A DNA stretch of 5,452 nt from Escherichia coli (GCF_003334255.1 NZ_QOWU01000104.1), one strand, 5' to 3'. Shown: positions 2,482 to 3,254, numbered from the stretch's first letter. Program-made: numbers and translations. The notes: generated from the letters alone by a model not told the origin.

Positions 2482-2502
2482 AAATTTCCCTTTGCCAAAG
2501 GC

Positions 2503-2526
2503 GTAATGATAATGATTTGCGTTAGC
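2503..2526 (-). promoter_or_regulatory. Putative Fur box overlapping the promoter of the receptor gene
   Basis: Plus-strand GATAATGATTTGCGTTAGC at 2508-2526 matches the Fur consensus GATAATGATAATCATTATC at about 14 of 19 positions, with tandem AATGAT hexamers at 2505-2516. It lies 22-48 bp upstream of the ATG, among TATCAT/CATTAT -10-like hexamers on the gene strand. Iron regulation is expected for this receptor class. Confidence 0.5.
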
Positions 2527-3199
2527 AAAGAGGGAATTTACAATGAACAGAAAAGAAGGTAAATCACATTTCGCTCATTCAGTTAATATTTTCGAATAAT
2601 TTCCTGAACATGCCAGACTTGATGAGAACAGCAGAACAGCCCCTTTCTCCGGGGAACTCTTTACTACATAATTTATAGTCCTGTCGAAGATGTAAGCTCT
2701 TTCATCTGGATATCTCCATCAACAACATTCCAGTAGAGCACACGAGAGCGACAGGGGACTGGCGTTATTTATTACGGTATGCTTGTCTGATTTGGTAGAA
2801 AATAAAAATGGGCGACTGACCAGATATGGGAGTCTCCGGTCAGTCATTCGCTTGTAGATGCAGGACATAAGCGAACCAGGGCCCACTGCTTGTGCGCAAA
2901 AGCAAGGAGAGTTTACCCTGGCAGATTGAGTTACACCAGATCATCACCTCACTGACCAGTCAGAAATTCCGACTCATCTTCCACCACTAAACCTGCTCCA
3001 TCCCAGTCCTGAACCTTCCCTCGCCAGCAGCCAGGATCGTACGGTTCACCACCATCCTCTTCCGTGAATGGCCGTAAGTGAGCAGAACCAAAATAAATCG
3101 GTACTTCCAATAACAGATAGTGAAAGCGTAAGGTGAAATATGAACATGAGAATGGAAGCAGATACATGACTTCAGGACGACTTTTTCAGAAAACGAGCT

Positions 3200-3221
3200 A
3201 AGGGCGTTGGCTGACGCCCTT
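3200..3221 (-). terminator. Candidate intrinsic terminator downstream of the YagK/YfjJ-like gene
   Basis: Inverted repeat AAGGGCGT (3200-3207) / ACGCCCTT (3214-3221) with a 6-nt loop. On the minus strand it is followed by AGCTCGTTTTCTGAAAAAG, a short interrupted U-tract. It lies 34 bp past the stop codon at 3255-3257. Confidence 0.3.
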
Positions 3222-3254
3222 ACTGTGGCATAAGCTCAGGCACCGGATGCCGTT

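Follow-up and report, generated by a model that had tools for sequence, protein, structure and literature searches.

The E. coli ireA locus raises the question of what occupies the DNA between the receptor gene and its upstream neighbor, a region that carries no annotation in nearly all RefSeq records and has until now been treated as empty. The window analyzed here, to which all coordinates refer unless another replicon or locus is named, is a stretch of 5,452 nucleotides of E. coli DNA (NZ_QOWU01000104.1). According to the open reading frame (ORF) listing and RefSeq records, its minus strand carries, in this order, a YagK/YfjJ “inovirus Gp2 family” gene (3977 to 3255), the spacer (3254 to 2482), and ireA (2481 to 433). 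The first-pass annotation had described a spacer of about 770 bp without a convincing gene, and such a spacer is real; it measures 773 bp and is bounded by the 5′ side of ireA at 2481 and the stop codon of the Gp2-family gene at 3255. By megablast, the spacer is 100% identical to several plasmids (e.g., CP060062) and 99.2 to 99.4% identical to the chromosomes of CFT073 (99.2%), APEC O1, and others. In work on extraintestinal pathogenic E. coli, ireA is much used as a marker and is also a vaccine candidate. Our reading of the locus, to which we assign a probability of roughly 70%, is that the spacer is a mosaic and that a small RNA gene, encoded by the minus strand and pointing in the direction of ireA, is its sole strongly constrained feature outside the promoter.

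Partial matches to the spacer among 1,122 E. coli genomes fall into separate blocks (2482 to 2583, 2482 to 2946, and 2947 to 3254), indicating that the mosaic was pieced together from three modules of separate history, namely, the ireA promoter with its Fur box (about 2482 to 2545), the RNA element (2797 to 2913, minus strand), and the 3′ flank of the Gp2-family gene (2947 to 3254). The first block is found alone in ireA loci that have an IS2 102 nt upstream of ireA, the block from 2482 to 2946 travels with ireA only, and the block from 2947 to 3254 lies, at 82 to 90% identity, 3′ of Gp2-family genes in many other islands. In plasmid pSTEC401_1 (locus L162) and strain 20KM2228 (locus L164), the ORF region (3160 to 2950) and the RNA plus ireA-upstream region belong to different haplotypes; recombination breakpoints therefore exist inside the spacer. 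A separate observation concerns the borders of the segment. Two inverted repeats of 78 nt (166 to 243 and 5375 to 5452, 96% complementary) are ends of two oppositely oriented IS3-family copies, which bracket a segment made up of ireA, the Gp2-family gene, and a truncated IS100, an arrangement that looks composite-transposon-like on these plasmids.

The part of the spacer next to ireA can be assigned to the regulation of that gene. Positions 2482 to 2545 (minus strand) hold its promoter-proximal region and a short 5′ leader as read from the sequence; conservation is 100% throughout this block, including the genomes with the IS2 102 nt upstream of ireA. A Fur box (TAATGATAATGATTTGC/TAACGCAAATCATTATC, 2504 to 2524) is located about 26 nt upstream of the ireA ATG. 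It matches the 19-bp Fur consensus twice, in overlapping registers and each time with 3 mismatches, where 0.01 is expected by chance. This predicted operator would overlap the ireA promoter, the candidate –10 element of which (TATCAT) overlaps the Fur box, and the likely Shine-Dalgarno sequence is AAGGGA. Neither for ireA nor for the RNA element did a simple scan yield a sigma-70 consensus promoter, and we therefore infer both promoters from the features described here and below. In CFT073, ireA is a direct Fur target according to Fur chromatin immunoprecipitation (ChIP) and RNA-seq (PMC7157518), which together with the Fur box bears out the earlier suggestion that the spacer holds the upstream regulatory region of the receptor gene. 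The adjoining ireA-specific upstream DNA (2546 to 2796, minus strand) shows little conservation (the haplotypes share 77% identity and differ by indels), has no match to phage loci, and is regarded as poorly constrained filler. Within it, a TATAAAT-containing stretch at 2660 to 2690 on the minus strand (...CTTCGACAGGACTATAAATTAT...) is identical in both ireA haplotypes amid poorly conserved surroundings; it may be a binding site or a more distal promoter of ireA.

The other end of the spacer belongs to the Gp2-family gene. Its 3′ flank (2947 to 3254, minus strand) shares 82 to 90% identity across many islands, is weakly conserved, and behaves as weakly constrained, drifting DNA; at 82 to 85% identity with many indels, it is conserved less than the gene itself (93.7%). 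About 90 nt of it (3165 to 3254) are conserved 3′ of Gp2/YagK-family genes in many islands and include the intrinsic terminator of the gene (3222 to 3199, minus strand), a 9-bp stem followed by GCTCGTTTTC. The Gp2-family gene is replication-initiator-like, and its flank was considered as an origin of replication; this candidate was rejected on the grounds that the flank is less conserved than the gene and rich in indels. Just 3′ of the terminator lies a cargo hotspot (loci L009, L010, L004, L007, and L008), which is filled, island by island, by ireA, an acyltransferase, a TIR-domain protein, or an SMODS nucleotidyltransferase with a SLATT protein. At the opposite end of the gene (window 3900 to 3992), the ORF starts with TTG, and its first approximately 20 residues are unlike the MNQPIHN... 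N terminus of its relatives; the end of IS100 (istB) abuts the ORF, and so the 5′ end of the gene has apparently been replaced by the insertion of the IS.

The flank also contains an ORF of 72 amino acids with an ATG start (2949 to 3167, minus strand), which the ORF listing confirms as the only one of at least 60 codons in the spacer, the next longest having 55 amino acids. As had been noted before, it lacks a Shine-Dalgarno sequence; read directly, the DNA before its start codon (...GTCCTGAAGTC ATG) contains nothing resembling AGGAG. We give hardly any credence to the idea that this ORF encodes a real small protein or is what remains of a longer gene. In its favor, it begins with ATG, a hypothetical protein is annotated there in one RefSeq genome, and its DNA is common to many islands 3′ of the Gp2-family gene. 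It nevertheless matches no family in Pfam, NCBIfam, or PHROG, and a search of 5.8 billion proteins turned up nothing beyond 8 near-identical ORFs of E. coli, with neither a longer nor a more distant relative among them; likewise, tblastn against plasmids gave matches in E. coli only. In related loci the frame is broken by a 1-nt deletion, by a 2-nt deletion, or, in the ireA locus L164, by an in-frame TAG. Its acidic C-terminal half, formerly taken for the tail of a real protein and for a sign of a decayed gene, is not conserved, as the tblastn alignments in plasmids end at residue 58, before the acidic tail. With the lower conservation of the region relative to the adjacent gene, these results contradict the proposal of a gene remnant. 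The 72-amino-acid sequence is a chance ORF in the flank of the Gp2-family gene, and a spurious “hypothetical protein” is thereby removed from consideration.

Between these two flanks lies the segment that carries our main reading. When the window was compared in 60-nt windows with a diverged ireA locus (L006), the ireA coding region was 92 to 100% identical and most upstream DNA 55 to 87%, and approximately 130 nt from 2930 to 2800 were nearly invariant. Haplotype A (the window and CFT073) and haplotype B (three loci, L006, L162, and L163) differ at only 2 of the 105 positions of the RNA core (2802 to 2906), compared with 110 of 489 positions in its flanks (Fisher P = 2.6e-8), i.e., the core is 98% identical between the ireA haplotypes and the flanks are approximately 78% identical, the two haplotypes counting as a single comparison. 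Recent recombination in a patch could give a false impression of constraint at the core; this reading is disfavored because both differences fall at unpaired positions. Conservation of the spacer across ireA strains thus extends beyond the promoter-proximal 150 bp and is located in the RNA element at 2797 to 2913, and the earlier conjecture of an unannotated small RNA in the spacer is supported by a conserved, structured candidate on the minus strand. It has the orientation of ireA and is located about 320 nt upstream of that gene. In CFT073, it corresponds to 4935558 to 4935674 (+) of NC_004431.1. Among 341 ireA-positive genomes, approximately 199 carry the element, and since approximately 40% have lost it through an IS2-associated deletion, it is dispensable for ireA.

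The predicted RNA adopts a branched fold that is supported by comparative evidence. RNAalifold analysis of 32 distinct sequences gave a consensus of 28 pairs in which 98.3% of cells are paired, with a 5′ hairpin (P1), a closing helix round two further hairpins (P3 and P4), and then a U-rich tail. P1 (2887 to 2904, minus strand) pairs UGCUU with AAGCA around the loop UUGCGCAC; it is found in the RNAalifold and minimum free energy (MFE) folds and by covariation, where the Hafnia copy has C-G instead of U-A, a compensatory change. The three-way junction (2808 to 2886, minus strand), on which RNAalifold and single-sequence MFE folds agree, is formed by the closing helix, GUGGGC (2886 to 2881) with GCCCAU (2813 to 2808), which encloses P3 (2877 to 2846) and P4 (2845 to 2814), all on the minus strand. 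Compensatory changes on both sides were observed at 10 pairs, compared with 1.8 ± 0.8 in column shuffles (reached in 0 of 500) and 0 to 5 in slid controls; seven of these pairs are in P3 and P4, and a second, model-fitted alignment of covariance-model hits from other genera gave the same picture. One P3 pair occurs as C-G, A-U, and U-A, and in Hafnia and Morganella phages the P3 sequence is wholly different, with the pairing kept. The closing helix is invariant and shows no covariation, so that its support comes from thermodynamics and invariance only. The copies from the window, an E. coli phage, Sakai, and Hafnia each fold alone to the same shape (z = –3.4 to –4.7; window copy, z = –4.6).

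The strand can be assigned as well. Four pairs are G-U in most sequences and would become C-A on the opposite strand, and the reverse complement folds less well (z = –3.0); these two features and the U-tract place the RNA on the minus strand of the window, in the direction of ireA. A covariance model built from the alignment (model R1, the seed of which included the window sequence) gave in cmsearch a single, full-length hit in the window (model positions 1 to 116; 2797 to 2913, minus strand; 99.3 bits, E = 1e-24), and the element is thereby classed by a sequence-and-structure model with the family that includes EcOnc49, a candidate described below. By comparison, a scan of the whole window and of a phage copy against Rfam 15 identified no family at the element; with relaxed filters, the best hit in 2700 to 3260 was ctRNA_pGA1, at 18.4 bits against a cutoff of 45 bits.

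The origin of the element is revealed by its relatives. Sensitive blastn detected copies of 72.6% identity in approximately 980 E. coli genomes and some plasmids, and all of these lie in lambdoid prophages, where they are flanked by an orf64-like small gene on one side and a DNA methyltransferase gene on the other, downstream of the antiterminator Q gene and on the strand opposite the late genes. Copies were also found in 61 phage records from Escherichia, Shigella, Klebsiella, Citrobacter, Hafnia, Morganella, Providencia, and Serratia (including SfV, cdtI, mEp460, phiP27, and many Stx2 phages), in more than 120 IMG/VR contigs, and, among species-representative genomes, in prophages of nine further genera (Kluyvera, Kosakonia, Mangrovibacter, Rosenbergiella, Buttiauxella, and others). 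Apart from the ireA copy, the family is one of lambdoid phages that infect Enterobacterales, where it sits in the late region. In all 16 of the 16 other loci examined, 24 to 26 nt separate the element from the start codon of an N6-adenine methyltransferase gene, a “moron,” and the two are divergent. In phages, the element is followed by a convergent gene, and convergence with an orf64-like gene counts among the traits by which the family is defined. This distance of about 25 nt on the opposite strand makes the phage element antisense to the methyltransferase leader on the late transcript. No methyltransferase or orf64-like gene was detected in the window by tblastn, and in a blastn comparison of both spacer flanks with all phage loci, neither was similar to phage, the RNA segment alone matching; no remnant of either gene was thus found in the spacer, and the ireA copy is a discrete, orphaned module of phage origin. 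The element is accordingly a conserved, structured RNA-level element that stems from phages and is constrained at the ireA locus.

Two features of the phage loci deserve separate mention. A LexA-box-like palindrome, CTGT-N8-ACAG (e.g., ACTGTTTATTTTTACAGTA), is conserved within the first codons of the phage methyltransferase, just upstream of the putative promoter of the RNA (L011, 3455 to 3470; L136 and L137, 2456 to 2471). It is present in most phage loci, approximately 59 nt upstream of the GCTTTTGCGC motif, in Escherichia, Hafnia, Morganella, Providencia, Kluyvera, Citrobacter, Mangrovibacter, and Rosenbergiella, and hints at possible SOS control of the phage RNA or of the methyltransferase. 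A pattern scan covered the fetched loci, and inspection by eye revealed no such box upstream of the window element. In addition, the interval from the Q gene to the orf64-like gene of L011 holds a strong intrinsic terminator (AAACCCGCCGUCGAGCGGGUUUUUUU; 3945 to 4016, minus strand of the locus), with only weak, subthreshold Rfam hits (e.g., Trp_leader and isrK), which is presumably the prophage tR′.

One member of the family appears to have been captured before as an RNA. EcOnc49 was listed from prophage Sp9 of O157:H7 Sakai at 1772764 to 1772808 on the minus strand (Tree et al. 2014, Mol Cell, Table S2, PMC4104026); it has a predicted terminator, was present in three Hfq-CRAC data sets, and has no Northern blot (PMC4104026). 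The laboratory of Tree et al. mapped its reads to NC_002695.1. The published sequence of a second candidate, EcOnc03, is located at 1774634 to 1774684 in NC_002695.2 and is given as 1774497 to 1774550 in Table S2, which implies a coordinate offset of about +135. Shifted by this value, the EcOnc49 peak is placed at approximately 1772899 to 1772943 (minus strand), within the Sp9 copy that the covariance model identifies at 1772839 to 1772955, and covers P1 to P3, the 5′ half of that copy; the match depends on an offset taken from one anchor 1.8 kb away. On this placement, the predicted strand of the homologue gives rise to an RNA that contacts Hfq in vivo.

These data also bear on the view that the element works on its other strand, as the leader of the late mRNA, or as a DNA site for recombination or protein binding, and that the window copy is an inert relic. 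The complement of the phage element is in fact the 5′ leader of the methyltransferase mRNA, and the reverse complement, at the z-score given above, still folds better than shuffled sequences. We nevertheless hold this to be highly improbable: the four pairs that are predominantly G-U on the minus strand turn into C-A mismatches, the Hfq-CRAC peak runs opposite to the late genes, and the element is conserved in the window though no plus-strand gene lies downstream.

For the minus-strand small RNA that we favor, the ends of a transcript can be proposed. A putative –10 box, TAAACT (2910 to 2915, minus strand), aligns with the conserved extended –10 of the phage copies, TGnTAnnCT; the window reads GGGTAAACT from 2918 to 2910 and lacks the TG of the phage motif, and no –35 box is recognizable upstream of the element. 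At the other end, a U-tract (UUUUUAUUUU, 2799 to 2808, minus strand), the likely point of intrinsic termination, directly follows the closing helix. As it follows a branched structure and not a simple hairpin, a simple terminator scan made no call; the phage copies have only 3 to 4 U at this position. Transcription would start from the –10 box (2915 to 2910) near 2903 and end at the U-tract near 2800, to yield a predicted RNA of approximately 105 nt.

The same layout would also suit a cis-acting leader or attenuator, in which transcription begins at the element's promoter and regulated read-through produces a long ireA mRNA. The element has the orientation of ireA, is located approximately 320 nt upstream of it, and is kept with ireA in both haplotypes. 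We find this explanation very unlikely, as ireA has a Fur box and promoter directly at its 5′ end, the 250 nt between element and ireA promoter are poorly conserved, and the ireA loci with IS2 at –102 do without the element; moreover, the phage element is followed by a convergent gene and not by a co-oriented one.

A stronger competitor, though still an unlikely one, is that the element is a leftover of a phage moron boundary and its RNA functionless; at most, it would then terminate transcription, or act as an insulator, between the Gp2-family gene and ireA. The good U-tract that ends the element at the ireA locus is in keeping with this, the approximately 40% of ireA-positive genomes without the element show no sign of a disabled ireA, and no target in trans was identified. 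One hairpin would, however, suffice for termination, yet P1, P3, and the unpaired junction nucleotides are invariant next to flanks that differ by 22%; the Gp2-family gene already has its own terminator (3199 to 3222), and the homologue is bound by Hfq in vivo.

If the element is instead a small RNA gene, its mode of action may be sketched by analogy with Sp9. The ireA-linked RNA would, like its Sakai homologue EcOnc49, bind Hfq and act by base pairing. The ancestral target would be the methyltransferase leader, addressed in cis by a phage antisense RNA; the ireA-linked copy, with its cis target gone, would most likely act in trans. Pairing of the window RNA with a phage methyltransferase leader is predicted at –119.8 kcal/mol, compared with –59 ± 6 for shuffles, and because this long complementarity to late-transcript leaders is kept, the RNA could act in trans on resident prophages. 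The P3 and P4 loops, which have diverged from the phage versions, may address other mRNAs. ireA itself was rejected as a pairing target, since the RNA pairs with the translation initiation region of ireA no more strongly than shuffled sequences do (–36.6 compared with a shuffle mean of –40.5 kcal/mol). A side effect of the element may be to insulate the Fur-controlled ireA promoter from upstream transcription.

The fullest version of this proposal, that a virulence island has domesticated a phage antisense RNA and uses it in trans against lambdoid phage leaders or host mRNAs, is speculative, and we consider it rather doubtful. If it were true, a near-identical stretch of approximately 35 nt would pair with the late leaders of resident or incoming lambdoid phages and modulate the expression of late genes or of the methyltransferase; alternatively, the two retooled loops would make the RNA an Hfq-dependent regulator of host mRNAs that act together with iron uptake in extraintestinal E. 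coli. What is new here is, first, an unannotated, constrained, phage-derived structured candidate RNA at the ireA locus and, second, an RNA family that is defined by structure, covariation, a covariance model, and host range and is widespread in lambdoid and Stx phages. A phage cis-antisense RNA outside its phage context also offers a testable case of small RNA capture. In the literature searched beyond Table S2, we found no description of EcOnc49, of small RNAs near ireA, or of antisense RNAs to phage methyltransferases. PapR, a UPEC small RNA that acts on pap, was considered, as pap adjoins ireA in CFT073; it was rejected, since the PapR paper locates it outside the pap island and says nothing of ireA.

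Comparison with known systems helps to place the two functional parts of the spacer. In Fur-repressed promoters of TonB-dependent receptors (e.g., iutA and fepA), as at ireA (PMC7157518), a Fur box overlaps the promoter directly upstream of the gene, and measured against this type ireA shows nothing unusual; such a promoter explains just the proximal 60 bp or so of the spacer. For the RNA element, the closest counterpart is EcOnc49, which is homologous in both sequence and structure (112.6 bits for the Sp9 copy and 99.3 bits for the window copy with the covariance model), follows the same strand logic, and has a terminator-like 3′ end after the same three-way junction. The two are approximately 73 to 77% identical and differ in their hairpin loops; EcOnc49 opposes, as an antisense RNA within a lambdoid late region, the leader of a DNA methylase gene, whereas the window copy is located in a nonphage island with no methylase. 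The “anti-sRNAs” AgvB and AsxR have a conserved 3′ region of approximately 42 nt (GTATCTCATGC..TTGCCCGAACCCAYTCGGGC) and a variable 5′ seed of 14 to 18 nt (Tree et al. 2014). They resemble the present family in being Hfq associated and antisense to the late operon and in being encoded where lambdoid prophages insert morons, downstream of pR′. However, they measure 51 to 60 nt with a single terminator hairpin and lie 3′ of the moron, whereas the window-type RNA has approximately 105 nt with a three-way junction and lies, in phages, at the 5′ leader of the moron. Identity with AgvB or AsxR was rejected, as their published sequences (…GTATCTCATGCnnTTGCCCGAACCCAnTCGGGC…) share no similarity with 2797 to 2913. 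Short cis-antisense RNAs with an intrinsic terminator are familiar from phages in lambda OOP, which opposes cII, and P22 sar, which opposes ant. The phage members of the present family are likewise short RNAs opposite a segment of phage mRNA, with targets, sequences, and structures of their own; unlike OOP and sar, the window copy has lost its cis target. From these comparisons, the ireA RNA would be an orphan member of an uncurated small RNA family of lambdoid phages, previously represented by one unvalidated Hfq-CRAC candidate.
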